Assembly: GCA_018654745.1 (NCBI GenBank)
Contig: JABILA010000094.1
Location: 19,237-83,236 of the forward strand
DNA: 64,000 nt
Reading direction: 5' to 3'
Origin: Alphaproteobacteria bacterium
GTDB lineage: Bacteria > Pseudomonadota > Alphaproteobacteria > UBA2966
Within the stretch, counting starts at the first letter, position 1, and each line of letters starts with the position of its first letter. The notes under the pieces were generated by a model. It saw only the letters and a list, made by a program, of their open reading frames with translations. It made no database searches and was not told the origin of the DNA. Of this stretch, positions 408-56,537 are shown one piece after another. Position numbers and translations under genes: made by a program.

Positions 408-1255
408 CTGTTCAGCCACATAAGCCTTTGCCAGCAGCATTTGACCTGAACGGCAAACATGCATTGATTACTGGCGGGGCGGGATTACTCGGCATTGAAC
501 ACGCCTGCGCACTTGTCGAAACGGGTGCCGTGATTGTTCTGACCGATCTTGACGAGAACCTTCTTGACCAGGCAGTGATAGAAATCCGGTCACGTTTTCC
601 TGAGAGTATTATCCATTCCTGGAAGATGGATGTAACAGATAAAGCATCCATCCTGTCTGTCAGCGAGAGATTGCGGGAATCTGATATCGATCTGGATATC
701 CTGATTAACAACGCAGCCATCGATAGCAAGGTAGATGAACACGGAAACATTGAGAATGGCGGCCGCTTTGAAGACTTTGAACTCGACGACTGGCAGGCCC
801 AGGTAGACGTTGGCCTGACCGGTGCATTTTTGTGTAGCCAGGTTTTTGGCCCTCCAATGGCGGTCCGGGAACAGGGTGTTATTCTGAACATTGCGTCGGA
901 TTTATCCGTTATCGCGCCGGATCAGCGAATTTATCGCCAGGAAGATTTGCCAGAGAATGAGCAACAAAAAAAGGCGGTAACTTATTCAGTGATAAAGACG
1001 GGTCTGCTCGGACTGACACGGTATCTGGCAGCTTACTGGGGCGAACAAGGTGTGCGCGTCAACGCCCTTTCTCCCGGAGGTATTCAAACCAGTCAATCGG
1101 ACGCATTTGTTACACGCCTGACAAATCTGATCCCTGCCGGACGAATGGCCCGGAAAAATGAATATGCCAGTGCGGTTCAATTTCTTTGCTCGGATGCCAG
1201 CCAGTTTATGACCGGTCAAAATATCGTCATGGATGGCGGGCGGTCGATCATATGA
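404..1255 (+). CDS. SDR-family oxidoreductase, PtmA (flagellin modification protein A)-like
   Basis: TGGAGLLG Rossmann motif, LINNAA, YSVIK catalytic YxxxK, VRVNALSPGG and C-terminal TGQNIVMDGG; the APDQRIY insert resembles SDRs of nonulosonic-acid clusters. Confidence 0.85.
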   Translation: MTVQPHKPLPAAFDLNGKHALITGGAGLLGIEHACALVETGAVIVLTDLDENLLDQAVIEIRSRFPESIIHSWKMDVTDKASILSVSERLRESDIDLDILINNAAIDSKVDEHGNIENGGRFEDFELDDWQAQVDVGLTGAFLCSQVFGPPMAVREQGVILNIASDLSVIAPDQRIYRQEDLPENEQQKKAVTYSVIKTGLLGLTRYLAAYWGEQGVRVNALSPGGIQTSQSDAFVTRLTNLIPAGRMARKNEYASAVQFLCSDASQFMTGQNIVMDGGRSII

Positions 1256-3264
1256 ACCAGGATATAAATACCTTCTTACATGAAGCAGTGAAATTCTGTG
1301 ACGCCAAAGACCTGGCCGGGGCCGAGAACGTATTGATCGAAGGGAAAAAATCGCACCCTGATTCTGTTGATCTCACCGCTGCGCTTGGGGACATCAGGCT
1401 CGCGCAAGGGCGCGCGAAAAAGGCTGCCAGCGACTATCAGGCAGCAATCGATTTGTCACCGGAAACCCCAAAGTTCCTCGTTGGCCTTGCCTCGGCGCTA
1501 CAGGCAGGAAATGACACCATAGGGGCCATCAATGCCCTGCAGAAGGCTGTTGCACTCGATATCAACAATCCGTTATTACACAACGATATTGGCCTTCTTC
1601 AACGACTGGTTGGGCAGAAAGAAGTTGCTGTCAAATCGATTGAACACGCCATTCAAATTTCACCGGAAAATGCCATTTTTCACTGCAACCTTGGCAGGGT
1701 CCTTTACGACACAGGAGACTTCAAATCAGCCAGGAAGGCAATTGAACGCGCCCTCGATATTGAACCAAATTCTATCGATGCCTTGATCAATCTTGGCTGT
1801 ATTCTTCGTGAAATGGATCAGGCGCTTGAAGCTGTTCTTGTTTTCCAAAAGGCGAACAGCATAGATCCTTCAATACCAGATGTGTGGTTAAACCTGGCTC
1901 TGGCCTTACGCGACTGTGGCAAACCGGAACGCGGCATCGAGGCTATATCTACCTTATTGAAACTCGATCCGACCAGTGTCGGGGGTTTTGCAAATCTGGG
2001 GCGATTACTGCAACAAGTATTCAGGTATCCTGAGGCGGAGATTGCGTTTCGCAGGGCACTGGAACTATTGCCAAACCAACCACAAATTATGGCAAATTTT
2101 GCATCATTGTTGATCGAGATGGACATCCTGGACGAGGCTGAAGCCTTGTGTATCAAGGCACTTCAAATCAACCCCGACCATGTTCCAGCCTTGTCAAACC
2201 TCGGGAATCTGACTTCCCAGAGAGGCGATCAGGCCCTTGCCATCAACCTTCATCGAAAAGCGCTGGAGATTGAGCCGGATAACGTCAAAGTTCATCGAAA
2301 TCTCGCTGATCCCTTGTTCATCTCAGGGCAAATTGATGAAGGATGGGTGGCCTATGCCTATCGTTGGAAGAGGCCTGGCCGTCCACGCCGCCCACATTCA
2401 CAACCTGAATGGATGGGAGAGAGCCTTTGCGGCAAAACATTGATTGTCTGGCCAGAGCAAGGGGTGGGAGATACCGTAATTTTTTCAACCTGTTTGCCGG
2501 ACGTTATCGCAGTTGCGGATAAAGTTATATTTGAGGTCGATCCCCGGTTTTTAAATCTATATCAGCGTTCTTTCCCTGAAATATCAGTTGTTCCCCGTAT
2601 TGATCCTCCACACCCGGCAACGAGAAATCCGGAAATCGACTTGCAATGCCCAGTCGGTGATTTGGGAAGATGGACGCGGAGTTCGGTTTCCGATTTCCCT
2701 GTGACTGAAAGTATTCTTCAGGCAGATCCTGACCGTGTCCTCTGGTGGCAGGATCAATTGGCCACAATGGGTACCAACAAATTCAAGGTTGGTTTTTATT
2801 GGCGAAGCAAGGGTGATGGCAACGCGAGCCATAGTGCTTACCCTACTCTGGATGATTGGGCAAAAATACTACGGCACCCGGACATCGATTTCATCAATCT
2901 GCAATACGGTGCTGATGCAGATGTCGCGACGCGAACCTTTAACGAAATGGGTATAACGCTGCACCAACCTCCCGAAATTGACTTGTTTAACGATATTGAC
3001 GACCTGGCTGCTCTATGTTCTGCCCTGGATGTATTCGTCGGCCCGACAACTTTGACAGGCTGGCTTACAGCTGCAGTAGGGACTCCGGCTCTTGTCGCTG
3101 GCTTACCCGGAGACTGGATTGTCCTGGGCATGGATAACTTGCCGTGGTTACCCAAGGCCAGGTATATTGCCCGGGCATCAAGGTCTGATTGGTCCAGTGC
3201 CTTTGACACCCTTGCCCGCGAACTTGAAACAATCGTCCGCCAGAAGGTTCAATTCGTTGCCTGA
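1252..3264 (+). CDS. TPR-repeat glycosyltransferase (GT-B/GT9-like C-terminus), FlmG/FlbA-like candidate flagellin glycosyltransferase
   Basis: Long N-terminal TPR array, then WMGESLCGKTLIVWPEQGVGD, VGFYWRS, FINLQYG and DIDDLAALCSALD. Start moved to ATG 1252, which overlaps the upstream stop (ATGA). Confidence 0.8.
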   Translation: MNQDINTFLHEAVKFCDAKDLAGAENVLIEGKKSHPDSVDLTAALGDIRLAQGRAKKAASDYQAAIDLSPETPKFLVGLASALQAGNDTIGAINALQKAVALDINNPLLHNDIGLLQRLVGQKEVAVKSIEHAIQISPENAIFHCNLGRVLYDTGDFKSARKAIERALDIEPNSIDALINLGCILREMDQALEAVLVFQKANSIDPSIPDVWLNLALALRDCGKPERGIEAISTLLKLDPTSVGGFANLGRLLQQVFRYPEAEIAFRRALELLPNQPQIMANFASLLIEMDILDEAEALCIKALQINPDHVPALSNLGNLTSQRGDQALAINLHRKALEIEPDNVKVHRNLADPLFISGQIDEGWVAYAYRWKRPGRPRRPHSQPEWMGESLCGKTLIVWPEQGVGDTVIFSTCLPDVIAVADKVIFEVDPRFLNLYQRSFPEISVVPRIDPPHPATRNPEIDLQCPVGDLGRWTRSSVSDFPVTESILQADPDRVLWWQDQLATMGTNKFKVGFYWRSKGDGNASHSAYPTLDDWAKILRHPDIDFINLQYGADADVATRTFNEMGITLHQPPEIDLFNDIDDLAALCSALDVFVGPTTLTGWLTAAVGTPALVAGLPGDWIVLGMDNLPWLPKARYIARASRSDWSSAFDTLARELETIVRQKVQFVA

Positions 3265-6019
3265 TACCGGTGAAATATTCCTGGCTGCCCAAAAACATCT
3301 CGAAGCAGGTCAATTGGCCGAAGCGGAAATCCTGTTCGAGAAAGTACTGAAGTTACAACCGGATCACCTCTCGGCCTGTCAAAACCTTGTGAATGTTCGA
3401 AACCAACTAGGCGATCAGCATTTATTAAACGGTCGACCTGAGATTGCCCTTATCTGCTATCAACAGGCTTCATTGCTGGATAAACAAAACCCTGGCATCT
3501 ACAACAATCAGGGGCGTGCTTTGCTCGCGCTTGGCCAAATTGGTGAGGGAATTGAACGCTTTAAGAGCGCGCTGGCAATCGATCCCGTCAACACAAATTT
3601 TCGATTTAATCTGGCCCTGGGACTTTCCGGCCTTGGTGATTTTGCTCAGTCAATTGGTCATTTCAGGAAAACACTAAGAGACAGGCCAGACTGGCCTGAA
3701 GCTATTTTCGGCCTGGCAACAGCCCTGAGTAGAACTGGCAATCATGATGAGGCCGTCATATTTTTTCGCCAGGGTCTCCATCTGCAACCTGAACACCCAG
3801 ACATACAAACAGAACTTGCGTCTTGCCTGATCGCAATAGATAAACAAGTCGAAGCGCTGTCAATATTGACCAATATTCTCAAAGCGCACCCCCGGAATCC
3901 GCAAGCACACTTCTTATCAGCAGGCTTGAGCTTTAGAGCTGGCCGCAACGAAGACGCTGTTATGCACAACAGGGTGTCGCTGGAAAATGGCGGTGATATT
4001 CCCGGAAACAGTGTCAATATGGCTAATGCGCTTACTGCTCTGCGCAAACCAGGCGAAGCGATTAAGGTCCTGCGAGAAGCGATCAAAAACATCCCTGCAA
4101 ATGGGGAAGTCTGGCTTGCCCTTGGCAACGTTTTCTCAAAGGACGATCAGCCCACCTTGGCAATTGATGCCTTTCGGAAATCCATCAAAGTTGATCCGAC
4201 CAATGCCCTGGCTGCCAACAACCTCTCCATGGCATTGCTTCAAAACGGTGACCCGGATAAAGCATTGAAACTGGCTTTGGAAAACAGCAATACATTCGCA
4301 GACGATGCTGTCACATGGGGCTGTCTGGGTGCAGTATTGTTGTCCCTTGAACAATTCGATCAGGCACTTGCTACGCTAGACAAATCCCTGAATTTGGAAC
4401 CCGATGTTGTCAGTGTCCTTCAGAACAAGGGCAAAACCCAGCATCGTCTCGGCCAATACAAACATTCGCTGCAAACTTATCGCCGGATTGCAGCTCTATC
4501 ACCTGACAATTCACGTTCACACTTTAATCTTGGCAACATCCTGCAAACACTCTTCCGTCATGGCGAGGCAATAGAAGCCTACAGACAGGTTTTAGAAATC
4601 GACGACACTGATACTTCCGCCTGGTCGCTTCTGGCGCATTCCCTGAACCAGGAATGTCGCTGGGAGGAACTGGAGGAGGTAAGGGCTAAGGTCATAGAGC
4701 AAACTCGAAAAGAAATAGATTCGGATACCAATATTACAACGTCCCCATTTAGTCTTTTGCAATTGTCCGCGCCCGGCGATGTACGTCTTGCTTCGGCACG
4801 TCAAAGCGCACGCGCAGCCGAAAAATTGAGTCTGAAACGCCGAACACAATCTCCCCTGATCTTGTCACCAAAAGAAGGGGACAAGTTGCGGATTGGCTAC
4901 ATATCTCCTGACTTCAGAAATCATAGTGCCGGGCGTGCTTTTCTTGAATTGATGAGGCACCACGACAAGAATAAAAATGTCTTTCATGGTTATTCCACAT
5001 CACTAATTCAGGACAATGTCACCACTGAACTGGCTGCAAATTTTCATACCTTCACCCAACTCGGGAACAAGCCATTTGCAGATTCAGCTCAAATTATTCA
5101 CGACGACGACATCGATATACTTGTTGATCTCGCAGGACATACCAAAGGGTCTCGCCTCGAGATACTCGCTGAGCGGCCAGCCCCTGTACAGGTACACTAT
5201 TTGGGATACGGTCATACAATCGGCGCGGACTATGTTGATTGGCTGCTTACAGACGAAATCCGTACACCGGCATCTGAAGTCGCTCACTGCCATGAAAACG
5301 TTGTCTATTTGCCCAATACCACACTGCCTGTTTACGTTCCCTCCCCCGCTTCCGGAAGTAATAATGAAATCCTCCGGCCGAGCAAACTCAGCGAAGGGTT
5401 ACCGGAGAACGGCTTTGTTTTCGCCAATTTCAACGGACACTACAAGTTTGATCAGGAAATTTTTTCTGCCTGGATGAAAATTCTTCGCGAAACCCCGAAT
5501 GCGATATTGTGGCTGATGCATGCTGAAGGTGGAAGTGTTGCAAACCTGAGCAAAGCTGCTGAGAATTCGGGCGTCGACCCGTCTCGCCTTGTTTTTGCTC
5601 AAAAATGCAGTAACCAACAACACCTTGCCAGGCTAGCTCTGGCAGATATTGCACTAGATACATTTCATCATGCTGGTGGCGTCACCACGACCGACGCTTT
5701 ATGGGCCGGCGTTCCGGTGTTGACTTTGTTGCAGGACGACATGATAGACAGGATGGGCGCTTCCTTACTGACCGCCGCCCACCTACCCGAACTAATTGCC
5801 ACTTCCGTTGACAACTATGTTGAACGTGCTCTGACATTGCAAAAAAATCGCGGGTCCCTGGATGAGCTCAAAACCAGATTAATATCCAGTTATAAGACCG
5901 CTCCACTATTTGATACTCCCAGGTTGGCAAAGGATATTGAGGTCGCCTATGAAGCCATATGGCATGCCCACATCAATGGAAACAAGCCAAAGATCTTGCG
6001 GCCCGACATCAAAAATTGA
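3257..6019 (+). CDS. TPR + GT41 (O-GlcNAc transferase/SPINDLY-like) protein O-glycosyltransferase, paralogue 1
   Basis: TPR array plus LRIGYISPDFRNHS, DILVDLAGHT, RPAPVQVHYLGY, FANFNGHYK and DALWAGVPVLT. The in-frame TTG at 3257 (LPDTGE) is preferred over the track start at 3092, which overlaps the upstream gene by ~170 bp; start uncertain. Confidence 0.85.
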   Translation: MPDTGEIFLAAQKHLEAGQLAEAEILFEKVLKLQPDHLSACQNLVNVRNQLGDQHLLNGRPEIALICYQQASLLDKQNPGIYNNQGRALLALGQIGEGIERFKSALAIDPVNTNFRFNLALGLSGLGDFAQSIGHFRKTLRDRPDWPEAIFGLATALSRTGNHDEAVIFFRQGLHLQPEHPDIQTELASCLIAIDKQVEALSILTNILKAHPRNPQAHFLSAGLSFRAGRNEDAVMHNRVSLENGGDIPGNSVNMANALTALRKPGEAIKVLREAIKNIPANGEVWLALGNVFSKDDQPTLAIDAFRKSIKVDPTNALAANNLSMALLQNGDPDKALKLALENSNTFADDAVTWGCLGAVLLSLEQFDQALATLDKSLNLEPDVVSVLQNKGKTQHRLGQYKHSLQTYRRIAALSPDNSRSHFNLGNILQTLFRHGEAIEAYRQVLEIDDTDTSAWSLLAHSLNQECRWEELEEVRAKVIEQTRKEIDSDTNITTSPFSLLQLSAPGDVRLASARQSARAAEKLSLKRRTQSPLILSPKEGDKLRIGYISPDFRNHSAGRAFLELMRHHDKNKNVFHGYSTSLIQDNVTTELAANFHTFTQLGNKPFADSAQIIHDDDIDILVDLAGHTKGSRLEILAERPAPVQVHYLGYGHTIGADYVDWLLTDEIRTPASEVAHCHENVVYLPNTTLPVYVPSPASGSNNEILRPSKLSEGLPENGFVFANFNGHYKFDQEIFSAWMKILRETPNAILWLMHAEGGSVANLSKAAENSGVDPSRLVFAQKCSNQQHLARLALADIALDTFHHAGGVTTTDALWAGVPVLTLLQDDMIDRMGASLLTAAHLPELIATSVDNYVERALTLQKNRGSLDELKTRLISSYKTAPLFDTPRLAKDIEVAYEAIWHAHINGNKPKILRPDIKN

Positions 6020-6125
6020 CTAGAGCGTTTCCGGGTTTCACGGAAACGCAGCGTTGCCTCAACCCCCTTGGTATGAGCCAATAAGCGAAGTAATATTGAT
6101 TCCGTTTAGACCGGAATCGCCCTAG
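6020..6125. repeat. ~105-bp CTAG-bounded palindromic intergenic repeat, copy 1 (CIR/BRU-RS/RIME-like)
   Basis: CTAGAGCGTTTCCG...CGGAAACGC left hairpin; GATTCCG...CGGAATC right hairpin with two GANTC sites; ends in CTAG; near-identical copy at 6174-6278. Confidence 0.85.
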
Positions 6126-6158: not shown

Positions 6159-6173
6159 CTGATTTCCTATATA

Positions 6174-6278
6174 CTAGAGCGTTTACGGGTTTGACGGAAA
6201 CGCAGCGTTGCCTCAAGCCCCTTGGTATGCGCCAATAGAATAAGCATAAGCGATTCCGTTTATCCGGAATCTCCCTAG
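6174..6278. repeat. ~105-bp CTAG-bounded palindromic intergenic repeat, copy 2
   Basis: Direct repeat of 6020-6125 (shared ACGGAAACGCAGCGTTGCCTCAA, CCCCTTGGTATG, GATTCCGTTTA, CCGGAATC, CCCTAG). Confidence 0.85.
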
Positions 6279-6284: not shown

Positions 6285-8939
6285 ATGATCGATCCACAAA
6301 GTTCCTTTCAGGAAGCGCTTGTCCATCATAAGGCTGCGCGCCTGAATGATGCGGCACGTCTGTATCTCGAAACAATCGAACATGACCCTGGACATACCGA
6401 TGCTATGTGCAACTTTGCAGCATTGCGGTCCACTCAAGGTGCGTTTGACGAAGCCGGACAATATTTTGAGATGGCTCTGGGACTGATACCCAATGACGCA
6501 GATATTCTGACAAATTATGCCAATATGCTGTCTCGTCAGGGGTTACGGGACAAGGCGGAAGCTCGTTACAGAAAAGCATTGGAAGTTGCCCCTTCCTCAA
6601 TTTCCAGCTGTCTGGGTCTGGGGCAACTCTTGCTCACGGAACGCAGGATAAGCGAGGCCGTCAGTACATTTCGCCAGGCTGTGGATATCAAGCAAGACAG
6701 TTCGGAAGCGTGGCGTCTATTGGCATCCGCACAGATAGAAGCTGGTCAGACAGCTGAGGCAGTTGCTTCATTAGGCAAATGTCTTGAACTTGACCCGAGG
6801 GACAGTTCGGCGGCCTTTTCATTTGGTATTTTGTTAAGAAACCAGGGTAACCTTGAACAAGCCATCGCGTTTTTTCAGCGCGCATTACAAAATAGCAACC
6901 ACACGACAGCATGTGTTATTGCCGCAAATCTGGCTGAAGTTCTGGGTGACACCGGTCAAAAAATCGAGGCTATCAAGGTTCTGAATGAAGTCCTGAAGCA
7001 CTTTCCGGATTTTACCGAGGGCTGGAATAACCTTGGCACACTCTATCTGGGCCTTGACCGTTTTGACGAAGCGACCGCTGCCTACAAAAAATGCCGTGCA
7101 TTGTCGCCAGACAACATGATAGTTGCCAATAACCTGGCCGCTGCTTTTTTGAAATCCGGGCATCCGGAAAAATCACTTGCCTTGTATCAAAAGAATTTGA
7201 CGACCTGGCCTGATCAGGCCGATACGTTATCGGGTCTCGGCAATGTGCTGGTGTCACTGGAGAGCTTCGATGACGCGATAGAAGCCTATACAAGCGCCAT
7301 CGAACTTTCACCTGAAAACCTCGATGCATTACACGGGCGGGCTGTCGCTAACCATCGACGTGCTTCGATGTTTGGAGGTACAGAATATTATAGTGCAGCA
7401 CTGAAGGACTATCACACGGTAGCCACGCTGGATCCCATGCACCTCCATGCTCATCAGAATATGGGCCTGCTGTTGCAGTTGCTGGATGAGCATGAAAAAG
7501 CGATCACGGCCTTTCGTCGCGTTTTACAAGCCGACCCCCGATACCTTGCAGCCTATTCTTCCATGGCTCATTCCCTGCAACATTGCTGTCAGTGGGAAAA
7601 CCTGGATGCCACCATCGACCGTGTTGTCGCTTTGACCCGCGAGGAGATGGATTCTGGCAATGATATAACTGCGTCACCATTTAACCTGCTGCAGTTGTCA
7701 GCGCCTGGTGACGTAAGACTTGCATCTGCAAAGCAGGTTGCAAACATGTACAAACGTATTGCCGGAACAGGTGACGGACTGAATTTTACCTACAAAAAAC
7801 CCTCAGACGGTAAATTGCGCATCGGTTACATGTCCCCGGATTTTCGTGGTCACAGCGTCGGCAGAGCCTTTGAAGAATTACTGGCCGCCCATGACCGCGA
7901 CAATTTTACACTTTATGGCTATTACACTGGCACCAATGATGATGAAGTTACGACTCGTTTGAGACGCGACTTTGACGTCTTTCGAGAACTGACCAACACC
8001 CCTTTTCGCGATGCTGCAAAAGTTATTAATGACGACGGCATTGATATCCTTGTCGATTTGGCAGGCCATACAAAGGGCTGCCGATTTGAAGTTCTGGCGT
8101 TGAGGCCAGCACCAATACAGGCGCACTTTCTCGGATACGGATTTACGACGGGTGCGGACTACATCGACTGGCTCATTACCGACAAAATCAAAACCCCTGA
8201 AGAAGAACGCCCCTGGGTCGAAGAAAACCTTGCCTGGCTCCCCAATCAGTGCTTGCCGGCGTCTCGCCCGATCATATCGACAGAAACGTTCACACGTGAA
8301 CAGTTTGGCCTGCCCCAGGATGCATTTGTTTTTGCGGACTTTAACAGTCACTTCAAAATTGACCCGGAAGTGTTCTCAGCCTGGATGAGAATTTTGCGCA
8401 AGGCACCAGACTCAATATTATGGCTCATCGACTTTCAGGGCCCCGGCAACGAAGCATTGAAACGCGAAGCCAGCGCCAGAGGCGTTGATCCCTCGCGTAT
8501 CATATTTGCCGACAAATATCCAAATGATGTACACCTCGCCCGTCTCGCTCTGGCAGACCTTGCACTGGACACATATCACCACGCTGGTGGTGTAACGACT
8601 ACAGATGCCTTGTGGGCCGGACTACCGGTTCTAACGATCATGCATGAAGGCATGGTTGACAGATTGGGTGGGTCCGTTCTGACTGCCGCCGGGTTACCAG
8701 AACTGATCGCGTCGTCACTCGACGATTATATGCGCAAGGCTTTGGCTTACTTTGAAGATCCCGATAGCCTGCAGCGGTTGAAGGTCAAGTTGAAAGACAA
8801 TCAGGCCACGGAACCCCTGTTCGATACACCTCGATTAACCCGGGATCTGGAAGCCATTTTCACGGAAATGTGGAATCGATATGAAGACGGTGCCGAGCCA
8901 GGCACCATCGAACTTGCCCCCGTTCCTGCTGATGGCTGA
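6285..8939 (+). CDS. TPR + GT41 (OGT/SPINDLY-like) protein O-glycosyltransferase, paralogue 2
   Basis: TPRs plus LRIGYMSPDFRGHS, DILVDLAGHT, FNSHFKIDP and DALWAGLPV; AGGAGG immediately upstream. Confidence 0.9.
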   Translation: MIDPQSSFQEALVHHKAARLNDAARLYLETIEHDPGHTDAMCNFAALRSTQGAFDEAGQYFEMALGLIPNDADILTNYANMLSRQGLRDKAEARYRKALEVAPSSISSCLGLGQLLLTERRISEAVSTFRQAVDIKQDSSEAWRLLASAQIEAGQTAEAVASLGKCLELDPRDSSAAFSFGILLRNQGNLEQAIAFFQRALQNSNHTTACVIAANLAEVLGDTGQKIEAIKVLNEVLKHFPDFTEGWNNLGTLYLGLDRFDEATAAYKKCRALSPDNMIVANNLAAAFLKSGHPEKSLALYQKNLTTWPDQADTLSGLGNVLVSLESFDDAIEAYTSAIELSPENLDALHGRAVANHRRASMFGGTEYYSAALKDYHTVATLDPMHLHAHQNMGLLLQLLDEHEKAITAFRRVLQADPRYLAAYSSMAHSLQHCCQWENLDATIDRVVALTREEMDSGNDITASPFNLLQLSAPGDVRLASAKQVANMYKRIAGTGDGLNFTYKKPSDGKLRIGYMSPDFRGHSVGRAFEELLAAHDRDNFTLYGYYTGTNDDEVTTRLRRDFDVFRELTNTPFRDAAKVINDDGIDILVDLAGHTKGCRFEVLALRPAPIQAHFLGYGFTTGADYIDWLITDKIKTPEEERPWVEENLAWLPNQCLPASRPIISTETFTREQFGLPQDAFVFADFNSHFKIDPEVFSAWMRILRKAPDSILWLIDFQGPGNEALKREASARGVDPSRIIFADKYPNDVHLARLALADLALDTYHHAGGVTTTDALWAGLPVLTIMHEGMVDRLGGSVLTAAGLPELIASSLDDYMRKALAYFEDPDSLQRLKVKLKDNQATEPLFDTPRLTRDLEAIFTEMWNRYEDGAEPGTIELAPVPADG

Positions 8940-12557: not shown

Positions 12558-12604
12558 AAAGGAAGTTCCGGCTCCACCGACGATGCCAGTGGAACCGGAA
12601 TTTC
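12558..12604 (-). terminator. Stem-loop terminating flagellin operon A
   Basis: Minus strand GAAATTCCGGTTCCAC-N11-GTGGAGCCGGAACTTC-CTTTC directly after the stop at 12611. Confidence 0.65.
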
Positions 12605-13426: not shown

Positions 13427-13498
13427 TGTAGATGTCTCCTATTCTGAGAGCATTTAAACGACGTCTTCTGACGTCTCTTACGCTTGGTTTCGCTTTCC

Positions 13499-14308: not shown

Positions 14309-14377
14309 TTTAGTCGTCTCCTATTCTGAGAGTATTTATTCGACGTCTTCTGACGCCTCTTGGTTTTCGTCTTATCC

Positions 14378-15268: not shown

Positions 15269-15284
15269 AGCAACGAACGTGCCA
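15269..15284 (-). promoter_or_regulatory. Sigma-54 (-24/-12) promoter of flagellin operon A
   Basis: Minus strand TGGCACGTTCGTTGCT matches TGGCAC-N5-TTGCW, ~75 bp upstream of the start codon. Confidence 0.9.
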
Positions 15285-39277: not shown

Positions 39278-39336
39278 TTATCAACAACCCGGACGGATGA
39301 GCTGCAACCGCCATGCAGAAAATTCTAATCGGTCGG

Positions 39337-41299: not shown

Positions 41300-41321
41300 A
41301 ACATTTCCAAACCCCGGAAAA

Positions 41322-42344: not shown

Positions 42345-42414
42345 TGCACGTCCTCTATTGCGATAGGTAGATTATTTGTTGAATAGAAACGAAAAGTTTT
42401 CACAAACCACCATT

Positions 42415-45460: not shown

Positions 45461-45465
45461 AGCTG

Positions 45466-46578: not shown

Positions 46579-46618
46579 CGATTGTTCTTCTTTTTACAGA
46601 ATGAGCTCGGTTTATTGC

Positions 46619-50069: not shown

Positions 50070-50186
50070 GGCAAACCTCTCAAGTGCGATTAATATGGCC
50101 TCCAGCGTAACTCAAGCTTGGTAAACAAAACCTTTCAGGATCGGGAATAAAGAGCCACTTCACAGCCCAGTACCGCTGATTCCTGC

Positions 50187-51200
50187 TTATTTCATGCCTA
50201 AATCCTGCATGGTTTTGATGTTGTAATAGTTTTCGTTGCTCATAGGGTCTGAAATCTTGCCCGCCTTGAACGCTGCCATCAGATCCTGAACAGCATCAGC
50301 AATCGTATGCGTAGGAACAAATCCAAGCTCGTTCTTCATCTTTTCGGATGACACATGATACGACCGCAAGTCGTCTGAGGGGGTGGTTACAATTTCGACT
50401 TCGTCACCCACCACATCGCGAACCATTTTCGCAATATCACCAACAGTATGATTTTCATAACCGGCATTGTAGATTTTGCCATCAATCATCTGATCTTCGT
50501 ACTGCAGACACTCAAGATAAAGATCGGTCATGTCATCGATATGAAGATTTGGCCGTTTTTGAGTGCCACCGAAGACTGTGATCTTGCCATTTTCTACGGC
50601 ATGGGCCGTCAGGATATTTACAGTCAGATCAAGCCTTAGTCGACGCGCATAACCACATACGGTTGATGGACGAATGGTCAGCGTAACAAATCCTGGTTCA
50701 CGTTCTTCTTCCAGAACCTCTTCACACATGGCTTTGAATTTGGAGTAATCGGTAAGAGGTTCCAGCGCCAGATCTTCCGTCACTTCCGGCTCGTCCTTGA
50801 TACCGTAAACACTGGACGAAGAAGCATAGACAAAGCGCTTGACCCCTTCAGCCTTGGCTGCCTGAACCAGTGGTCTAAAGGCATCAAAATTGATTGATTT
50901 TCCCAATTCAGGATCCAGATCATAGCTTGGGTCATTGGATATGCATGCCAGATGTATGACAGCGTCACAGCCACTCAAGGCATCCCTGACAGTTTCTATA
51001 TTGCGCAGATCTCCCTTGACCTGGCGCAATGCCTTATGAGCAGTGTAATCCCCGTAGACGTCCTCACCTTCACCATACAAAAACAGATCGAGCACTGTTA
51101 CCGCGTGTCCGGCATCAAGAAGCTTCGGAATCAGATTGCTACCAACATAACCAGCGCCACCAGTTACCAGTACGTTCCAGGATTTATTACTCTCGGTCAT
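50187..51200 (-). CDS. NAD-dependent nucleotide-sugar epimerase/dehydratase
   Basis: VTGGAGYVG, HLACISNDP, ASSSSVYG, DYSKFK and RLDLTVN. Confidence 0.92.
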   Translation of the reverse strand: MTESNKSWNVLVTGGAGYVGSNLIPKLLDAGHAVTVLDLFLYGEGEDVYGDYTAHKALRQVKGDLRNIETVRDALSGCDAVIHLACISNDPSYDLDPELGKSINFDAFRPLVQAAKAEGVKRFVYASSSSVYGIKDEPEVTEDLALEPLTDYSKFKAMCEEVLEEEREPGFVTLTIRPSTVCGYARRLRLDLTVNILTAHAVENGKITVFGGTQKRPNLHIDDMTDLYLECLQYEDQMIDGKIYNAGYENHTVGDIAKMVRDVVGDEVEIVTTPSDDLRSYHVSSEKMKNELGFVPTHTIADAVQDLMAAFKAGKISDPMSNENYYNIKTMQDLGMK

Positions 51201-51805
51201 GCTCCGAACCTTTTTGCAATTACTTCTTCATTGGCAGCAAGACTGACCGCCAAATCAACGATGGAATGAATGATGCCAAGATGTGCGATTTCGACAAACC
51301 CGTAATCCGGCGAAGGTACCCAGGCATTCAAGTCACCCAGTTTCCGCAACCGATTGCCAGCTTCAAAACCACTCAAGGTGATAACACTCGCGCCAATTTT
51401 CCGAGCTGCTCTCGCAGCCAGCACAATATTTTCAGACTCACCTGAACTGGATATCGCGACAAGAATGTCACCCGCCTGCCCGTGTATCTCAATCTGCTTT
51501 GAAAAAACTTCCTCATAGGAATAGTCGTTGGCATAACAAGTCAGTGCGGCGGCATCGTTAAAGGCGATGGAACGAATTCGACCGTTTTTGGAAAAATCAG
51601 CAGCCATGTGACTGGCATGTGAAGCACTGGCACCATTGCCAACAAACATGACCTTGTTACCGGAACTGTGCGCCCTTCGGCATTTTTCAATTGCCATATC
51701 CACAAAGCTTTCGACGTCGATGACATTTCCATCGGCGTCAGTCACTTCGACAGACATCAACATGCGTGCCGCTTCAGCAAAATATTCAGTGGCGCTACGT
51801 TTCAT
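51197..51805 (-). CDS. gmhA: SIS-domain phosphoheptose isomerase-like protein
   Basis: VGNGASASHASH, TCYANDYSYEEVF, ISSSGESENI and GFVEIAH. Confidence 0.8.
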   Translation of the reverse strand: MKRSATEYFAEAARMLMSVEVTDADGNVIDVESFVDMAIEKCRRAHSSGNKVMFVGNGASASHASHMAADFSKNGRIRSIAFNDAAALTCYANDYSYEEVFSKQIEIHGQAGDILVAISSSGESENIVLAARAARKIGASVITLSGFEAGNRLRKLGDLNAWVPSPDYGFVEIAHLGIIHSIVDLAVSLAANEEVIAKRFGA

Positions 51806-51813
51806 ATCGCTCT

Positions 51814-53415
51814 CTATTTCAACAGGGCGGTCAGGAACTTAACCAGGGGAACTTTACCGACGGATTGCCGATGTCCAACGATACCGACTTTCAGGGCACC
51901 AACTGCGTTGCCAATAAATCCGGCAACTTCCATTGAAGCCCCACTGGCAATGATCGGCGATGTAATCGCGAGGAATGCATCACCCGCACCGACTGTATCC
52001 ACGACTTGTCGGGTGAAAGCCGGAACCTGGCTCACGCCGTTGTCCGGTTCATACACAACGGAGCCATTTTCACCATGTGTCACAGCGAAATTCCGGCAAT
52101 CGATATGGCTTCTAAGGTTGTCTTCAATCAAGACACCCAGGTCCGTGAAGGGATCGCCTGTCGCCAGGCGAGCTTCCGGTGCATCGATAGAGATGTAATC
52201 TGCTTCCTGATATTTTGTGATCAGGTTGAAACCATGGTTGGCACTGTTCGACTGAGCATTCACGGCAAGAAAACGAGCCAGGTTTGTCACTTTGTCGATT
52301 GATTTTTTGGTCATCAGACCATGCCCAAAATCAGTTACTATGACGACGTCATAATTTGGAGCACGTTCTTCGATAAGTTTGCAAAATTCGTTTTCTGAAT
52401 GCCCGGATAGAGGTGCGTCGTCAAAATGATAAACCTCAAACAACTTGCGCATATGGCCCGGATCGACGAAACGACATTTGCGCGTCGTAGGCACGCCACG
52501 ACGATAAACAAAGCTTGCGGTGACATTTTCGTTCAGGCTTTCGCGAATCAGGCTTTCGTAACTGTCGCGTCGTCCCAAACAGGTCAAAACCTCAACCTCT
52601 TTGCAAAATGTCGAAAGATGATTGGCTGCAGCAACAACACCACCAGCGAACACTTCTCGTCCGTCGAAACGACTGGCGATAATGTTTTCCTTGGCAGATT
52701 TACCCATCGGCACAGTATATTGGTATTCGTCGATGATCGCGTCACCGACGACCAGCACCTTGAGGTCTGCAATCTTCTCGATTGCCGCAAGTGCCTTATC
52801 CAGGAAACCTTCGTTGCGCTTGGCATCAAGATAGGACTGAACTTCCGGATCAAATCTGGCAAAATGTTCATTGATCAGCGAAGACGAAGAAAATGTAATA
52901 TCTTCAGTGAAGACAATCGAGCCACCGTGGCTTTCAACAGCCTGGCGCTCAAGATCAATTCCACCTGTAACATCTTCATCTGACTCTATGTAATCCTGAC
53001 CTTTGACATAGGCGTCTGGCTTGATGATATCGATGACCTGTTCTGCAGTCGGAAAAAAGCTGATCCCGGCCCAGTCGACACATTCCATTGCAGCCAGCAT
53101 TTCAGCCCGGATCTGATCATGAAAAACCGGACGGTCCGGACCTTTATTGACATGTTCATCTGCCGTGCAGGTCACAATCAGGATATCGCCTTCTCGAGCA
53201 GCAGCTTCCAGATGGCGTACATGGCCCAGATGCACAAGATCAAAAACACCGTGCGCCAATACGACCGATCGACCGGCAGAGCGTGCTTTCTCCGCTACGA
53301 TCGCCAGTTCATCCAGTGACTTTATCTTGTCGCGGGCTTGCGAGCGTACAAGCGTCGGCAATGGCGTAACGTTAGGTACAGGTCTCAAGGTCATGGCGTT
53401 AATATTGTCAGGCAC
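51814..53415 (-). CDS. Bifunctional nucleotidyltransferase (N-terminal) / PfkB sugar kinase (C-terminal), HldE-like with reversed domain order
   Basis: HGVFDLVHLGH, NKGPDRP and YVKG in the N-terminal part; VGDAIIDEY, DFGHG and VDTVGAGDAF in the C-terminal part. Confidence 0.88.
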   Translation of the reverse strand: MPDNINAMTLRPVPNVTPLPTLVRSQARDKIKSLDELAIVAEKARSAGRSVVLAHGVFDLVHLGHVRHLEAAAREGDILIVTCTADEHVNKGPDRPVFHDQIRAEMLAAMECVDWAGISFFPTAEQVIDIIKPDAYVKGQDYIESDEDVTGGIDLERQAVESHGGSIVFTEDITFSSSSLINEHFARFDPEVQSYLDAKRNEGFLDKALAAIEKIADLKVLVVGDAIIDEYQYTVPMGKSAKENIIASRFDGREVFAGGVVAAANHLSTFCKEVEVLTCLGRRDSYESLIRESLNENVTASFVYRRGVPTTRKCRFVDPGHMRKLFEVYHFDDAPLSGHSENEFCKLIEERAPNYDVVIVTDFGHGLMTKKSIDKVTNLARFLAVNAQSNSANHGFNLITKYQEADYISIDAPEARLATGDPFTDLGVLIEDNLRSHIDCRNFAVTHGENGSVVYEPDNGVSQVPAFTRQVVDTVGAGDAFLAITSPIIASGASMEVAGFIGNAVGALKVGIVGHRQSVGKVPLVKFLTALLK

Positions 53416-53722: not shown

Positions 53723-53813
53723 TAGCACGGAAATTGCAAAGCTCCCGTCGACTAGTGCCTTCAATCAACTATTTGGCGGCGCATTATGCCATAAACCGGC
53801 AAAAATTGCCGGG
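53723..53813 (+). promoter_or_regulatory. Sigma-54-like promoter variant with downstream ftr-like palindromes
   Basis: TAGCACGGAAATTGCA (53723-53738; AG instead of GG at -24), then CGGCGCATTATGCCA (53777) and CCGGCAAAAATTGCCGG (53796). Confidence 0.5.
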
Positions 53814-53843: not shown

Positions 53844-56537
53844 ATGTTACCCCTTTCGAACACGAGTGAAACACCGAAGTTTACGCTGCCAACGTTTGAT
53901 TTCAATTCGTTGTCGAGCTTCTACACGACCGGTGCGTTCATGGGGATTTCAAAGCATGCCGACAAGCTGGCCTCCGGCGCGCTCAAGGATATTCTGGATA
54001 TTGATACAAAGGCACCCATTCCGCCGTGGATGCTGGCACGACAAAAAACAGGCACAATTGAAGAGCGCGTATTCTCCGGCAAGGATGTTATCGATCTGAC
54101 AGACCCGTTGTTTGATCGGGATGATGTCGACGATGACTACAAAAATCTGTTCGCTATATATAAAGGGCTGGCGAAACTTGAAGAACTGACAGAATACGCC
54201 ACGACCTCTGATGGCAACGCGATGGCCACTTTGCTTGAGCGTCAGTACGATCGCTACATGAAGGAAATCAAGGCCTTCGTAAACTCCACCGAGTTTTCAG
54301 ACATCAACCTGGTCGCTGAGCTTAAATCAGATGTTCTGAAATCATCAATCGCCATTCCGCCAGCTTCAGATGATACAGCGTTCCGCGGTAATCATATTGC
54401 ATCGACGCGAGATTCAGCAGTTACAGGCCTTACAGCCTCAGACGCCTTTACCATATCTGTCACGCTCAATAGTGTCACAACAGACGTCGTCGTAAATTTA
54501 TCGAGCGCAGCCAGTCTATCCCTGGACGATATCGCCACTCAGATAAACTCGGATCTCAGTGGTGCCGGATTTTCCAGCACTTTCGAAGTACACAGAGAAT
54601 CAGAAACGGCCTACGGACTAGAGGCCACCATCGGCACTGGAGAAAGCCTGTCCCTGGCGCATGCGGCTGCAGCAGAATCCAGCTCTGTCTACGTTACAGG
54701 CCGGGCCGGCAGCGGAGATCTGGCGGATGGCTTTTTGCTTAAGGTTGACGACCTGGCATCAGCAGACCCGACACAGCAATTCTATCAAAACATAGGCAGT
54801 ACTTACGACGGCGAATTCCACAGCGATAGCGCCAATGGTGTTGCAACAGATTCAAAAGGCAACGTTTATGTCGTTGGTACGACTTCCGGCGACATGGAAG
54901 GCCAGATTAACGTCGATGGGTCAGATATTTTCCTGCGTAAATATGACGCCAGTGGCGCCCTGCAATTTTCAAGAATGCTGGGATCGACACAGTCCGCGGG
55001 TGGATTTTCCGTAGCCGTCGATGCAAGTGATAACGTTGTAATTGCAGGACAAACCGGTGGATCACTATCCGCCGCAGCCTACGACTATGGCACAGATAAC
55101 TTCATTTCAAAATTTGATTCAGAAGGTGAAGAACTCTGGACCCGCCAACTTGGTCCCTACGAAATGGACGCAGCGCTGGACATTACTTTTGACACCAGCG
55201 GAAATATCTATGCCGCCGGCATTACAGAAGGCGCAATTGACTCTGGCCAAACCTACAGCGGTGGCATGGATGCCTATATCGCCAAGCTTGATACTGATGG
55301 GACGCTGGCATTTAACAAGCAATTCTCAAGTGCGGGCGACGAAACGGCCACAGGTATCGCCGTAAACGCTTCCGGTGACATCTTCGTAACAGGCATGGCT
55401 GACGCCGACGGGTATGTCCGCAAATACGATAACACCGGAACGCTCACGTATGACCAAAGCCTTGGAACAGTTGGGTCAGATGGTGATATCACCGGCATCG
55501 CGCTCGACAGCAATGGCGACCCCTATATTTCAGGATATACCTCCAGCAGCACGCTCGCCGCATCAGTTGTAAATGCTCATAGTGGCGGCACGGATGGCTT
55601 TGTTCTATCGGTGGACGATACAGGCGCCAGTGCTTCTGTGAATTTTGTCACATATGTCGGCACAACGGGTACTGACAAGAACTTCGGCATCGCGGTAGAT
55701 ACAGCGACCAATGACGTTTACGTCACCGGCAGCACGGATGGCACCCTGACGGGTGAAACACAATCCAGCTCCCTCGATGGTCATATGGCCAAGTTCAATT
55801 CAACGGGCACACTTCAATATACACATCAGTTCGGCGGTGGCATGACCCACCAGGGATACGATATCGACTTTGATGCCGATGGTTCGAACACACTTTCCAA
55901 GCTTGGCCTGCCAGGTGGACCGATCCCGGTTGAAAACTCCCTGACAGTCGGCGCACGCACGACAGTACGTGATTCACAGACATTTTTTATTGGCCTGAAT
56001 GACACCGAAACCAAGGTCACAATCGACCAGGACGATACGTTTGGCTACCTGACATTCAAGATAAACAAGATACTTGGTATCCAGGGGCGGGCATCTCTGA
56101 CTGATGATGTCGATCAGCGTGTATTTCAAATTGAGGCTCTGAACGGCAACAAGATTTCAATCTCAGCTGGTACAAGCAATTTCAACGCTTTGCCGGGACT
56201 AGGGTTGAGAGAGACTACTTTGTTCGGCAAATTCGAGGAAGGTGACAGGATCGGCGAATTGTCCGCTGATCAAATGGCATTTGCGCTTGGTTTGGTCGGA
56301 GATATTGATCTATCGACGACCGACAAGGCGACTGAAGCACTGACATTGGCAACAAATGCCATGCGTGAAATCAAGGATGCATACAAGTTCGTCACAGACG
56401 GTCCACAGGATGAAAATGAGTTTCAGTCCCAGGGATCTGCTTCTGCCTACACGCTTGGACGAATTGCAGCATATGAAGGCGCGCTGAATGCAATCGCCAG
56501 TATGAATATTCAGCCACTGACGAGTACTTCAACTTGA
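53844..56537 (+). CDS. flaEY: FlaEY-like flagellar protein with SBBP-type beta-propeller repeats
   Basis: N-terminal APIPPW...DYKNLFAIYKGL; repeated (G)VAxDxxGNxYVxGxT / DxFxxKxDxxG blades; C-terminal AYTLGRIAAYEGAL recalls Caulobacter FlaEY; flagellar regulatory motifs upstream. Confidence 0.65.
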   Translation: MLPLSNTSETPKFTLPTFDFNSLSSFYTTGAFMGISKHADKLASGALKDILDIDTKAPIPPWMLARQKTGTIEERVFSGKDVIDLTDPLFDRDDVDDDYKNLFAIYKGLAKLEELTEYATTSDGNAMATLLERQYDRYMKEIKAFVNSTEFSDINLVAELKSDVLKSSIAIPPASDDTAFRGNHIASTRDSAVTGLTASDAFTISVTLNSVTTDVVVNLSSAASLSLDDIATQINSDLSGAGFSSTFEVHRESETAYGLEATIGTGESLSLAHAAAAESSSVYVTGRAGSGDLADGFLLKVDDLASADPTQQFYQNIGSTYDGEFHSDSANGVATDSKGNVYVVGTTSGDMEGQINVDGSDIFLRKYDASGALQFSRMLGSTQSAGGFSVAVDASDNVVIAGQTGGSLSAAAYDYGTDNFISKFDSEGEELWTRQLGPYEMDAALDITFDTSGNIYAAGITEGAIDSGQTYSGGMDAYIAKLDTDGTLAFNKQFSSAGDETATGIAVNASGDIFVTGMADADGYVRKYDNTGTLTYDQSLGTVGSDGDITGIALDSNGDPYISGYTSSSTLAASVVNAHSGGTDGFVLSVDDTGASASVNFVTYVGTTGTDKNFGIAVDTATNDVYVTGSTDGTLTGETQSSSLDGHMAKFNSTGTLQYTHQFGGGMTHQGYDIDFDADGSNTLSKLGLPGGPIPVENSLTVGARTTVRDSQTFFIGLNDTETKVTIDQDDTFGYLTFKINKILGIQGRASLTDDVDQRVFQIEALNGNKISISAGTSNFNALPGLGLRETTLFGKFEEGDRIGELSADQMAFALGLVGDIDLSTTDKATEALTLATNAMREIKDAYKFVTDGPQDENEFQSQGSASAYTLGRIAAYEGALNAIASMNIQPLTSTST

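Follow-up and report, generated by a model that had tools for sequence, protein, structure and literature searches.

We analysed 64,000 nucleotides of contig JABILA010000094.1 of Alphaproteobacteria bacterium assembly GCA_018654745.1 (the whole of this stretch is called the window). It carries a candidate flagellin glycosylation island in which seven flagellin genes and four flaF genes lie among the genes of four GT41 enzymes, glycosyltransferases of the O-GlcNAc transferase (OGT)/SPINDLY type having tetratricopeptide repeats (TPRs), one FlmG-class TPR/GT-B enzyme, 27 sugar genes and one gene of the FlaEY family (Table 1). This inventory is backed by Pfam matches and models and agrees with a preliminary description made from the sequence alone, which had listed seven flagellins, four FlaF proteins, one FlmG-like and four GT41 enzymes, about 25 sugar-tailoring genes and a FlaEY-like gene. 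Hidden Markov model (HMM) searches of the contigs of the 5.07-Mb genome (155 contigs) gave totals of eight flagellin, seven GT41 and five FlaF genes, and thus the window holds most copies of each. In the control column of these genome searches a FlaF match was obtained only in Caulobacter.

The window belongs to a larger flagellar region. Upstream on the contig are flgF, flgG, flgA, flgH, dksA, fliX, flgI, a gene encoding a rod-binding protein, a weakly FlgN-like gene, flaG, the fifth flaF and flbT. FliX, FlbT and FlaF are a hallmark of alphaproteobacterial flagellar regulation. Beyond flbT toward the window are genes encoding a class-III aminotransferase, a PseF-like cytidylyltransferase, a 163-residue open reading frame (ORF) having no assignment and a NeuB-like synthase.

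Flagellins form a two-by-three mosaic

All seven flagellins passed both Pfam thresholds, with Flagellin_N scores of 100.6-106.6 bits (cut-off 26.6) and Flagellin_C scores of 54.7-68.1 bits (cut-off 23). Two over-long ORFs were trimmed to the shared MGMS start, after which all seven proteins had 269-273 residues. Six of these flagellins compose a mosaic of two terminus types (Fla2-4 and Fla5-7) and three types of centre (called X, Y and Z). The termini are 95-99% identical inside an operon group and 84-90% identical across groups, whereas the central 70 residues pair across the operons (Fla2/Fla7 89%, Fla3/Fla5 88% and Fla4/Fla6 84%, the other pairs being 65-79% identical). The DNA identities of the same segments are much lower, 79-93% for termini within a group and 68-73% for partner centres, which argues that the mosaic is old and has been maintained by selection at the protein level rather than by recent gene conversion. 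The central segment (residues 141-200) has 18-21 serine or threonine residues per 60 in Fla2-8 and 13 in Fla1. The eighth flagellin, Fla8, is encoded on a separate contig and is 69-73% identical to Fla2-7. Its gene is isolated (contig C44, locus L002, 6064-6876); when the island, flagellin and FlaF/FlbT proteins were compared by tblastn with this 16-kb locus only a weak short-chain dehydrogenase (SDR) paralogue was found.

Three of the FlaF genes of the window were recognized by hmmscan with PF07309 (80.5-104.7 bits, cut-off 23.6), and the fourth, FlaFb at 16249-16590 (112.6 bits), was found through the ORF listing and the genome-wide HMM search rather than by the initial hmmscan. The FlaF proteins fall into two clades that are 30-35% identical to one another. 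One comprises FlaFa, FlaFb and the FlaF adjoining FlbT upstream of the window (FlaF0), which are 48-66% identical, the upstream protein being 50% identical to FlaFa and 66% to FlaFb. The second comprises FlaFc and FlaFd (67% identical), the genes of which are interleaved with those of the type-B flagellins. Hence, the flagellin matrix and paired FlaFs of the preliminary description are real by identity comparisons. No homopolymeric or dinucleotide tracts of the kind that give phase variation by slipped-strand mispairing were found at the locus.

Transcription signals of the flagellin operons

The preliminary description had reported sigma-54, CtrA-like and ftr-like motifs. Given a sigma-54 consensus that we take to be TGGCAC-N5-TTGCW, promoters of this type are predicted for Fla4 and Fla7, and a similar element precedes the FlaEY-like gene (Table 1). 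The motif class is not enriched in the window overall (58 matches vs 45.4 +/- 7.3 expected) and therefore the argument rests on position. No sigma-54 element precedes the later genes of either flagellin operon, where the gaps are about 55-110 nucleotides, and this placement of the elements ahead of only Fla4 and Fla7 points to two operons, each with three flagellins. Both Fla2 and Fla1 have a strong hairpin terminator behind them, that of Fla2 (12566-12600) separating Fla1 from Fla2.

The CtrA-like motifs are not supported. With a CtrA consensus presumed to be TTAA-N7-TTAA the window has no exact box (0.93 expected) and 14 one-mismatch boxes (20.7 expected), plus a single TTAA-N8-TTAA at 20391-20406. 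As for the ftr-like motifs, we found one intergenic inverted repeat, TTGCCGG-N17-CCGGCAA, which is a candidate at an enhancer-like position upstream of the Fla7 promoter; the window has three matches to this repeat (0.3 expected), only one of which is intergenic. A search for an enhancer motif shared by the regions ahead of the three sigma-54-like promoters gave only pairwise two-mismatch 14-mers, none being common to all three.

Four GT41 enzymes

The four GT41 proteins of the window scored 243.7-282.8 bits with PF13844 (cut-off 25 bits) and each matched many TPR families. GT41b matched human OGT (E 4e-113), SPINDLY (1e-72) and the Xanthomonas enzyme XcOGT (8e-59). The yKIDP stretch of human OGT aligned with fKIDP of GT41b, and residues K691 and D693 are invariant in 10 flagellar-linked GT41 proteins. 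The nucleotide-phosphate-binding lysine of the GT41 catalytic domain is presumably Lys842 in human OGT numbering. The four paralogues are 33-43% identical, with the TPR arms (24-33%) being more divergent than the catalytic domains (43-52%). The start of GT41a is uncertain: the frame is open from 3092 but lacks an ATG, and the TTG at 3257 overlaps the stop codon of the preceding gene. A complex prediction of the GT41b TPR arm (residues 1-445) with Fla2 gave a score of 0.05 and a mark of 0.32, which is evidence neither way. The remaining three GT41 genes of the genome lie outside the window.

A candidate FlmG-class enzyme at the end of a nonulosonate-like branch

The protein encoded at 1252-3264 matched only TPR families in Pfam and NCBIfam, and its C-terminal 290 residues have no Pfam family. 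The AlphaFold model (predicted local distance difference test, pLDDT, 91.7 at full length and 90.0 when the C-domain is modelled alone) has 22 TPR helices followed by two Rossmann-like halves. As a fold search with the whole model was swamped by TPR matches to OGT and SPY, the C-domain was modelled separately. Its best Protein Data Bank (PDB) folds (TMq 0.48-0.62) were a Veillonella GT9 protein, WaaF, WaaC and the protein heptosyltransferase TibC (3tov, 1psw, 2h1h and 4rap), although a PDB sequence search with this domain gave no matches at E<=1. Published FlmG is a 596-residue protein composed of TPRs (residues 1-313) and a GT-B domain (residues 309-596), as given in the available text of PMC7591256. 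The modelled protein has this architecture of TPRs plus a GT-B domain of about 290 residues, and its gene has the genomic association of the class, being situated between the NeuB/PseF-like genes and the flagellin array.

When the C-terminal 291 residues served as the query, 20 of 4843 candidates matched at E<=1e-3; nearly all of the 20 were TPR proteins, and one was from Phenylobacterium. Relatives of the whole protein are widespread, with at least 597 confirmed among at least 600 matching contig stretches from many phyla. In the best 79 loci of these (at least 597), a ranking dominated by TPR similarity, flagellin genes were found in 21 of 79, FlbT in 18 and a NeuB homologue in seven (within 10 kb or the fetched flanks); no Caulobacter record was among the 80 kept of the at least 600 stretches. 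The homologue in a Phenylobacterium metagenome-assembled genome has 595 residues and is divergently transcribed beside flbT/flaF-like ORFs, an flmG-like position. The window protein is 29% identical to it in an end-to-end alignment of 640 columns (E 2e-72), and this Phenylobacterium protein was the proxy through which homology to C. crescentus FlmG (CCNA_01524) was gauged.

The genes of the NeuB-like, PseF-like, TIM-barrel and SDR proteins constitute a nonulosonate-like branch, which extends into the window as far as the FlmG-class gene. The SDR gene is translationally coupled to the FlmG-class gene, its stop codon being overlapped by the next ATG. The NeuB-like (217.6 bits, cut-off 399.65) and PseF-like (126.5 bits, cut-off 205.7) proteins are both below the equivalog cut-offs, and the product of the former may be something other than a standard nonulosonic acid. 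The NeuB-like ORF (upstream locus L001, 17893-18777) has only 294 residues and is followed by the TIM-barrel ORF that enters the window.

The sugar-pathway genes

The 27 genes between 23348 and 53415 encode 25 sugar-tailoring or activation enzymes and two glycosyltransferases by Pfam and NCBIfam. Among the 25 are three B12-binding radical S-adenosylmethionine (SAM) enzymes, two other radical SAM enzymes, four methyltransferases of three kinds and two DegT aminotransferases, together with a split transketolase, GmhA-like and HldE-like proteins, dehydratases, epimerases, reductases, a 2-oxoglutarate (2OG) oxygenase and a kinase. All of the NCBIfam matches of these enzymes are below the curated equivalog cut-offs.

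The genes lie in three segments that differ in conservation, as judged by comparison with a congeneric genome (G001) and with genomes of other families. The tailoring block next to GT41d is 57-95% identical in the congener, and its 2OG oxygenase, TIGR04323 protein and methyltransferase also adjoin GT41 and flagellin genes in G013, G023 and G229. The core pathway is 77-94% identical in the congener, has its gene order kept in G013 (48-74% identity) and is partially present in G023. Its content (transketolase, sedoheptulose-isomerase-like protein, bifunctional kinase/nucleotidyltransferase-like protein, phosphatase-like protein and aminotransferases) suggests synthesis of an activated heptose-like or longer amino sugar. 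The HldE-like protein (51814-53415) has the nucleotidyltransferase first and the PfkB kinase second, the reverse of the NCBIfam HldE model, with both halves scoring below the cut-offs.

Between these two segments is a 13-kb cassette having the lowest GC content of the window (0.44-0.47 vs 0.47-0.52 elsewhere). In the congener a different stretch of about 17 kb fills its position, and seven of the 11 cassette genes have no match there at E 1e-10, whereas the other four have only paralogue-level matches of 27-32%. The cassette looks like a horizontally exchanged unit for glycan diversification, and its enzymes resemble those of a branch for methylated 6-deoxyhexose, accompanied by two transferases that would extend the chain.

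Pfam scans of the 27 genes matched no flippase, polymerase, ABC exporter or polyprenyl-phosphate transferase family, nor any Wzx, Wzy, Wzz, initiating phosphoglycosyl transferase or ligase family. This lack of export and lipid-carrier families fits cytoplasmic protein glycosylation better than synthesis of lipopolysaccharide (LPS) or capsule.

Linkage of GT41, flagellin and FlaF genes in other genomes

The congener is syntenic with the window from flgI to the molybdopterin enzyme downstream of the island, the cassette excepted. The flagellins (90-99% identical) and flanking genes (about 88-93%) are closely conserved and the flagellin mosaic is kept. The glycosyltransferases are only 63-84% identical (GT41a 63% over the 495 residues available, GT41b 84%, GT41c 69% and GT41d 75%) and thus, like the replaced cassette, have diverged between the congeners faster than the flanks (about 90%). 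In G013, a 2.5-Mb genome of another family, a single contig has in order the FlaEY homologue, HldE-like, GmhA-like, epimerase, 206-residue protein, kinase, split transketolase, two DegT, 2OG oxygenase, TIGR04323 protein, methyltransferase and GT41 genes, then six flagellin genes with interleaved flaF genes and finally two more GT41 genes. GT41 also adjoins FlaF and flagellin in G021, G023 and G024, with part of the sugar core present in G023. Hence, the linkage of GT41, flagellin and FlaF proposed for survey in the preliminary description, and the core sugar pathway, recur in G001, G013, G021, G023, G024, G229 and other genomes.

Of the 41 relatives 15 have GT41 proteins, as do 60 of 251 alphaproteobacterial genomes sampled at the level of the class. 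From 45 of these 60 genomes we fetched 72 further GT41 loci among the matches listed, leaving out G025, which has no flagellin. A flagellin gene was within about 10 kb in six of the 72, FlaF/FlbT in three more and FlgI in one. A quick maximum-likelihood tree was then built of 98 alphaproteobacterial catalytic domains (from the 72 loci, the loci of the relatives, the window and the other three GT41 genes of the genome), with BLAST alignments that covered fewer than 300 of the 444 query residues dropped. In this tree 21 of the 27 flagellar-linked GT41 proteins, including all four from the window, fall into one 32-row clade (SH-aLRT support 96) that spans at least eight family codes. The linkage label changes nine times on the tree against a mean of 23.6 in shuffles, and none of 500 shuffles was as low, a statistic that overstates independence because the linked genomes are kin and eight of the 27 linked rows come from the present genome (G000) and the congener. 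Inside the clade GT41a, GT41b and GT41d group together and GT41c lies apart, each having an orthologue in the congener; in a 17-row GT41 tree the forks are open and orthology between families is unsettled. One of the GT41 proteins encoded outside the window, GT41e (contig C31, locus L003, 7330-12726), also falls in the clade, yet no flagellar gene is nearby. Its gene is followed by those of paralogues of the island FkbM methyltransferase (52%) and GT1-like transferase (50%); together they form another small module with GT41, located where the contig ends.

The preliminary description had proposed testing whether GT41 copy number tracks the number of flagellin types. The match counts are weakly correlated over the 41 relatives (Spearman rho 0.45), but among the 29 flagellated relatives the correlation is not significant (rho 0.32, p 0.09), and the genomes are not independent. 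There are exceptions in both directions: G017 has eight flagellin matches and no GT41, G007 has 12 GT41 and three flagellin matches and G025 has six GT41 matches and no flagellin match. The last is a complete (100%) 4-Mb relative and argues that GT41 enzymes have non-flagellar roles in the class. Any FlaF was found in 16 of the 41 genomes, four to five copies only in G000, G001 and G013 and at most two in the others.

The putative FlaEY-family protein and the flanks of the island

The edge of the island is marked by a gene encoding a protein of 897 residues. The nearest ESM Atlas clusters are named Regulatory protein FlaEY family (score 0.99, 222-227 of 256 features shared, structural TM 0.82) and PF27198 (FlaEY_3rd) is carried by 99-100% of their members; the local Pfam copy lacked PF27198 and only SBBP was matched. 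There is also a weak match to Flagellin_IN, the flagellin hook IN motif (E 0.018, residues 205-242), which is below the cut-off. Inspection by eye gave no obvious N-terminal signal peptide. The protein is 88% identical in the congener and 38% identical over 901 residues to the protein at the same edge of the G013 locus. No similarity was seen to an 895-residue Phenylobacterium ORF near the flmG-like gene, which is a poor proxy for FlaEY. The protein might be a flagellum-associated secreted protein or a further glycosylation substrate.

Past the island (56649-63998) are genes for an FlK-type thioesterase, a molybdopterin oxidoreductase with a 4Fe-4S/DmsC-like fusion (Fe-S/membrane subunit), an AMP-binding CoA ligase-like enzyme and a 2Fe-2S protein. 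These genes downstream of 56537, as scanned by Pfam, look like a catabolic cluster that has no relation to the island. Two copies of a 90-nucleotide element (6019-6108 and 6173-6262, 86% identical) lie between GT41a and GT41b. Its 64 blastn matches over many contigs of the genome indicate a dispersed repeat like a repetitive extragenic palindromic (REP) element or a miniature inverted-repeat transposable element (MITE).

Table 1 Features of the window. Positions are counted from the first nucleotide of the 64,000-nucleotide stretch
Feature	Position	Strand	Remarks
Xylose-isomerase-like TIM-barrel protein	from 3 (ORF starts upstream of the window)	+	Pfam AP_endonuc_2, 6e-12
Short-chain dehydrogenase (SDR)	404-1255	+	Pfam adh_short_C2, 1e-45
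FlmG-class flagellin glycosyltransferase candidate	1252-3264	+	About 11 TPR pairs, then 290-residue GT-B (GT9-like) domain
GT41a, TPR + OGT/SPINDLY-type	3257-6019	+	PF13844, 3.9e-72
GT41b, TPR + GT41	6285-8939	+	PF13844, 5.5e-84
GT41c, TPR + GT41	8881-11355	+	PF13844, 4.8e-80; alternative ATG at 8932 overlapping the GT41b end
Fla1, divergent flagellin having its own upstream region	11453-12274	-	55-57% identical to the other six
Operon A (terminus A)	12611-15193	-	Fla4 14378-15193 (Z), Fla3 13499-14308 (Y), Fla2 12611-13426 (X); gaps about 70 nucleotides
Sigma-54-type promoter TGGCACGTTCGTTGCT	15269-15284	-	Predicted; exact consensus, 91 nucleotides upstream of the Fla4 start
FlaFa and FlaFb, adjacent canonical-type FlaF pair	15667-16038, 16249-16590	-	48% mutual identity
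Operon B (terminus B for all three flagellins)	16663-20080	-	Fla7 19262-20080 (X), FlaFd 18869-19204, Fla6 17941-18759 (Z), FlaFc 17548-17883, Fla5 16663-17475 (Y)
Sigma-54-type promoter TGGCATGCCTATTGCG	20158-20173	-	Predicted; two mismatches, 93 nucleotides upstream of the Fla7 start
Inverted repeat TTGCCGG-N17-CCGGCAA	20336-20366		About 165-190 nucleotides upstream of the Fla7 promoter
GT41d, TPR + GT41	20431-23364	+	PF13844, 1.3e-82; divergent from flagellin operon B
Conserved tailoring block	23348-30962		RmlD-like reductase, FkbM methyltransferase, radical SAM enzyme, SAM methyltransferase, TIGR04323 protein, TIGR04324 2OG-Fe(II) oxygenase, KedN5-like B12-radical-SAM C-methyltransferase
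Species-variable cassette	30953-44055		4,6-dehydratase, nucleotidyltransferase, GT1-like glycosyltransferase, two B12-radical-SAM enzymes, CmcI-type O-methyltransferase, epimerase, FkbM methyltransferase, GT4 glycosyltransferase, RmlC-like epimerase, radical SAM/SPASM enzyme
Core pathway	44348-53415	-	Two DegT-type aminotransferases, split transketolase, APH-like kinase, weak HAD-like 206-residue protein, NAD epimerase/dehydratase, GmhA-like isomerase, HldE-like nucleotidyltransferase + kinase
Sigma-54-like element TAGCACGGAAATTGCA	53723-53738	+	One mismatch, about 106 nucleotides upstream of the FlaEY-like gene
FlaEY-family protein, 897 residues	53844-56537	+	SBBP beta-propeller core, 9e-18; marks the island edge

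Discussion

The locus is probably a flagellin O-glycosylation island in an alphaproteobacterial flagellar regulon of the FliX/FlbT/FlaF type. This reading accounts best for the conserved linkage of its genes, the flagellar clade of GT41 enzymes, the FlmG-like architecture of a soluble TPR glycosyltransferase and the failure to match export or lipid-carrier families among the 27 sugar genes. The flagellin-centred island put forward in the preliminary description is therefore upheld, by linkage both in the congener and in other families.

Such an island would operate as follows. The flagellins would be made from two sigma-54 operons and one separate gene and, by analogy with FlmG, would be bound in the cytoplasm through the TPR arms of soluble two-domain enzymes. 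The GT-B domains of these enzymes (four of GT41/OGT type and one FlmG/GT9-like) would transfer nucleotide-activated sugars to serine or threonine residues of the short exposed central segment, and the FlaF paralogues would then pass the flagellins to the export apparatus. Three sets of donors can be envisaged. One would come from the NeuB/PseF-like nonulosonate branch that lies beside the FlmG-class enzyme. The conserved core, together with the oxygenase and methyltransferase, would probably give an amino sugar in activated form, either heptose-like or higher-carbon. The species-variable cassette, through its 6-deoxyhexose enzymes, B12-radical-SAM C-methylases, O-methylases and two glycosyltransferases, would diversify or extend the glycan. 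Since the genes nearby serve the synthesis of other sugars, UDP-GlcNAc is probably not the sole donor of the GT41 enzymes.

As to how the five enzymes share the work, the allocation that we favour, although it falls just short of probable, is that a given TPR enzyme attaches its own kind of sugar to most of the flagellins and is not dedicated to a single flagellin type. This division by donor is favoured by the FlmG precedent, in which one enzyme modifies all six flagellins and the donor specificity resides in the GT-B domain.

Several points weigh against these views. Glycosylation of these flagellins is a prediction from the genes. The sugars cannot be named because every enzyme is below its equivalog cut-off, and those proposed are guesses. 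GT41 is a huge family, with at least 7415 proteins at E<=1e-30 among 8000 scored, and most GT41 genes are non-flagellar, given that 62 of the 72 further loci had no flagellar neighbour. Within the present genome three more GT41 genes lie elsewhere, and the kinship of the linked genomes tempers the clustering of linkage on the tree. NCBIfam names TIGR04323 and TIGR04324 only as sporadic carbohydrate cluster proteins, which suggests that the same module may serve other glycans elsewhere. As for division by donor, the greater divergence of the TPR arms than of the catalytic domains, together with the conserved centres of three types, keeps alive the idea that the enzymes differ in their acceptors.

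The fullest form of that idea is a combinatorial code in which each TPR enzyme reads one flagellin type or site (X, Y, Z, Fla1 or Fla8), so that a mosaic filament could be tuned through the two operons. The flagellin mosaic is genuine, under selection and kept in the congener, the GT41 enzymes are old paralogues each having an orthologue there, the TPR arms are the most divergent part of these proteins, and multiplied FlaFs occur, among the 41 genomes searched, only in those with the largest flagellin and GT41 arrays. We nevertheless consider such a code unlikely. In the only characterised TPR glycosyltransferase system one FlmG serves all six flagellins, both binding and modifying them, as described in the available text of the FlmG papers. 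GT41 and flagellin counts are poorly correlated in flagellated relatives, G017 has a large flagellin set without GT41, repeat tracts for switching were not found at the locus, and five enzymes correspond to five surface types only if the three further GT41 genes of the genome are ignored. A still broader proposal holds that the GT41 clade is a third major class of flagellin O-glycosyltransferases beside Maf and FlmG, kept together with a transketolase/GmhA/HldE-like pathway for a higher-carbon amino sugar and a FlaEY-family protein in several alphaproteobacterial families, and that the four paralogues to which it has expanded in this genus, the FlmG-class enzyme and the two FlaF clades read the two-by-three mosaic with enzyme, chaperone and flagellin matched to give a combinatorially decorated filament. 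Taken whole, this seems to us quite unlikely.

A different view of the locus is that the island makes a surface polysaccharide (LPS O-antigen or capsule) and lies beside the flagellin genes by chance or for co-regulation, while the GT41 enzymes modify other proteins (pilins or FlaEY) or have a regulatory role. The naming of TIGR04323 and TIGR04324, the mostly non-flagellar setting of GT41 genes and the GT4 and GT1-like enzymes of the cassette, which are of kinds frequent in polysaccharide loci, would suit it, as would a cyanobacterial GT41 homologue required for pilus-subunit glycosylation (PMC9306852, in its available text). We judge this view very unlikely given that the 27 genes gave no match to the export, initiating-transferase and ligase families listed above, that the core pathway travels with GT41, flagellin and FlaF in G013, G023 and G229, and that the flagellar-linked GT41 enzymes form a clade. 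Least credible of all is tandem duplication of flagellin, FlaF and GT41 genes that does no more than raise gene dosage, whether to supply many flagella or a filament that is thick or grows fast: although tandem arrays with direct-repeat families were detected and multi-flagellin arrays are common in Alphaproteobacteria (14-15 paralogues in the magnetococci MO-1 and MC-1 according to the available text of PMC7175107), the divergence of the GT41 paralogues and FlaF clades, the retention of every paralogue in the congener and the three centre types kept across two operons despite synonymous divergence argue for long-term retention of distinct copies.

If the locus is a flagellin O-glycosylation island, as we think probable, it bears on substrate choice by cytoplasmic O-glycosyltransferases, an open question according to the available text of the FlmG papers. 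Eukaryotes have a single OGT acting on thousands of substrates, from which rules of TPR-substrate recognition are hard to extract. The locus offers a tractable test system for TPR-based acceptor recognition and GT41 donor specificity, with four diverged OGT-family enzymes beside a small natural set of substrates having two terminus and three surface types. Further outcomes of the analysis are the clade of GT41 enzymes linked to flagellar genes and a conserved, uncharacterised sugar pathway as a possible source of new sugars, among them ones C-methylated by B12-radical-SAM enzymes and perhaps amino sugars of heptose or octose type. That the cassette varies between species suggests that diversity of the filament surface is selected for, for example by flagellotropic phages or grazers.

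Comparison with known systems

The preliminary description knew of no characterised system of this architecture. That was too broad, since FlmG and multi-paralogue Maf systems are characterised; it stands for GT41 enzymes, which have been noted in flagellar loci only at annotation level. The island is thus of a general kind already known, built on a GT41 clade that has only annotation-level mentions in the literature covered.

A close relative in design is the FlmG system of Caulobacter crescentus and Brevundimonas subvibrioides, where the TPRs bind the flagellins, the GT-B domain sets donor specificity and the reaction takes place in the cytoplasm before FlaF-dependent secretion (PMC7591256; bioRxiv 10.1101/2022.03.25.485807; available text). 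Both systems have a soluble enzyme of TPRs and a GT-B domain of about 290 residues, multiple flagellins of about 270 residues, FlaF/FlbT, NeuB/PseF-type genes and an alphaproteobacterial host. The present locus differs from what those texts describe in adding four GT41 TPR enzymes and a far larger set of sugar genes and in a genome with five FlaF copies rather than one.

The Maf systems of Campylobacter, Aeromonas, Shewanella, Magnetospirillum and Geobacillus resemble the locus in that their flagellin glycosyltransferases occur as several paralogues and their flagellin genes adjoin a large sugar island, which varies between strains. Campylobacter has several maf paralogues per genome. Shewanella has two Maf enzymes according to a published abstract. 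Maf, as described in the available sources, differs in its GT-A type MAF_flag10 domain, which was absent from the Pfam matches of the window ORFs scanned, and in the slipped-strand tracts, none of which were found at the present locus.

Enterobacterial flagellin islands with GT41 (De Maayer and Cowan 2016, PMC4875605) share the GT41 type (SPINDLY/COG3914), FkbM and SAM methyltransferases and deoxy-sugar genes, and are likewise predictions. In the available text those islands have one to three glycosyltransferases of mutually exclusive families, with GT41 mostly fused to a methyltransferase domain, whereas this locus combines four unfused TPR-GT41 enzymes with an FlmG-class enzyme and also has interleaved FlaFs and a pathway of transketolase/heptose-like type. 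Magnetospira sp. QH-2 (PMC7175107) has two genes annotated as O-GlcNAc transferase in flagellar clusters with flagellin and regulators, a likeness at the level of annotation. In MO-1 all 14 flagellins are expressed and highly glycosylated, no enzyme being named in the available text of the same paper. That text describes no two-by-three mosaic, FlaF multiplication or conserved core sugar pathway for QH-2, MO-1 or MC-1. The literature covered, which excluded most subscription journals and supplements, gave no experimental work on GT41 acting on flagellin, nor on a core pathway beside flagellins, multiplied FlaFs or such a flagellin mosaic.

The eukaryotic OGT and plant SPINDLY enzymes belong to the same GT41 family and share the TPR superhelix joined to a GT-B fold. 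They differ from the enzymes of this locus, which are bacterial and are encoded as several paralogues beside their presumed substrate.

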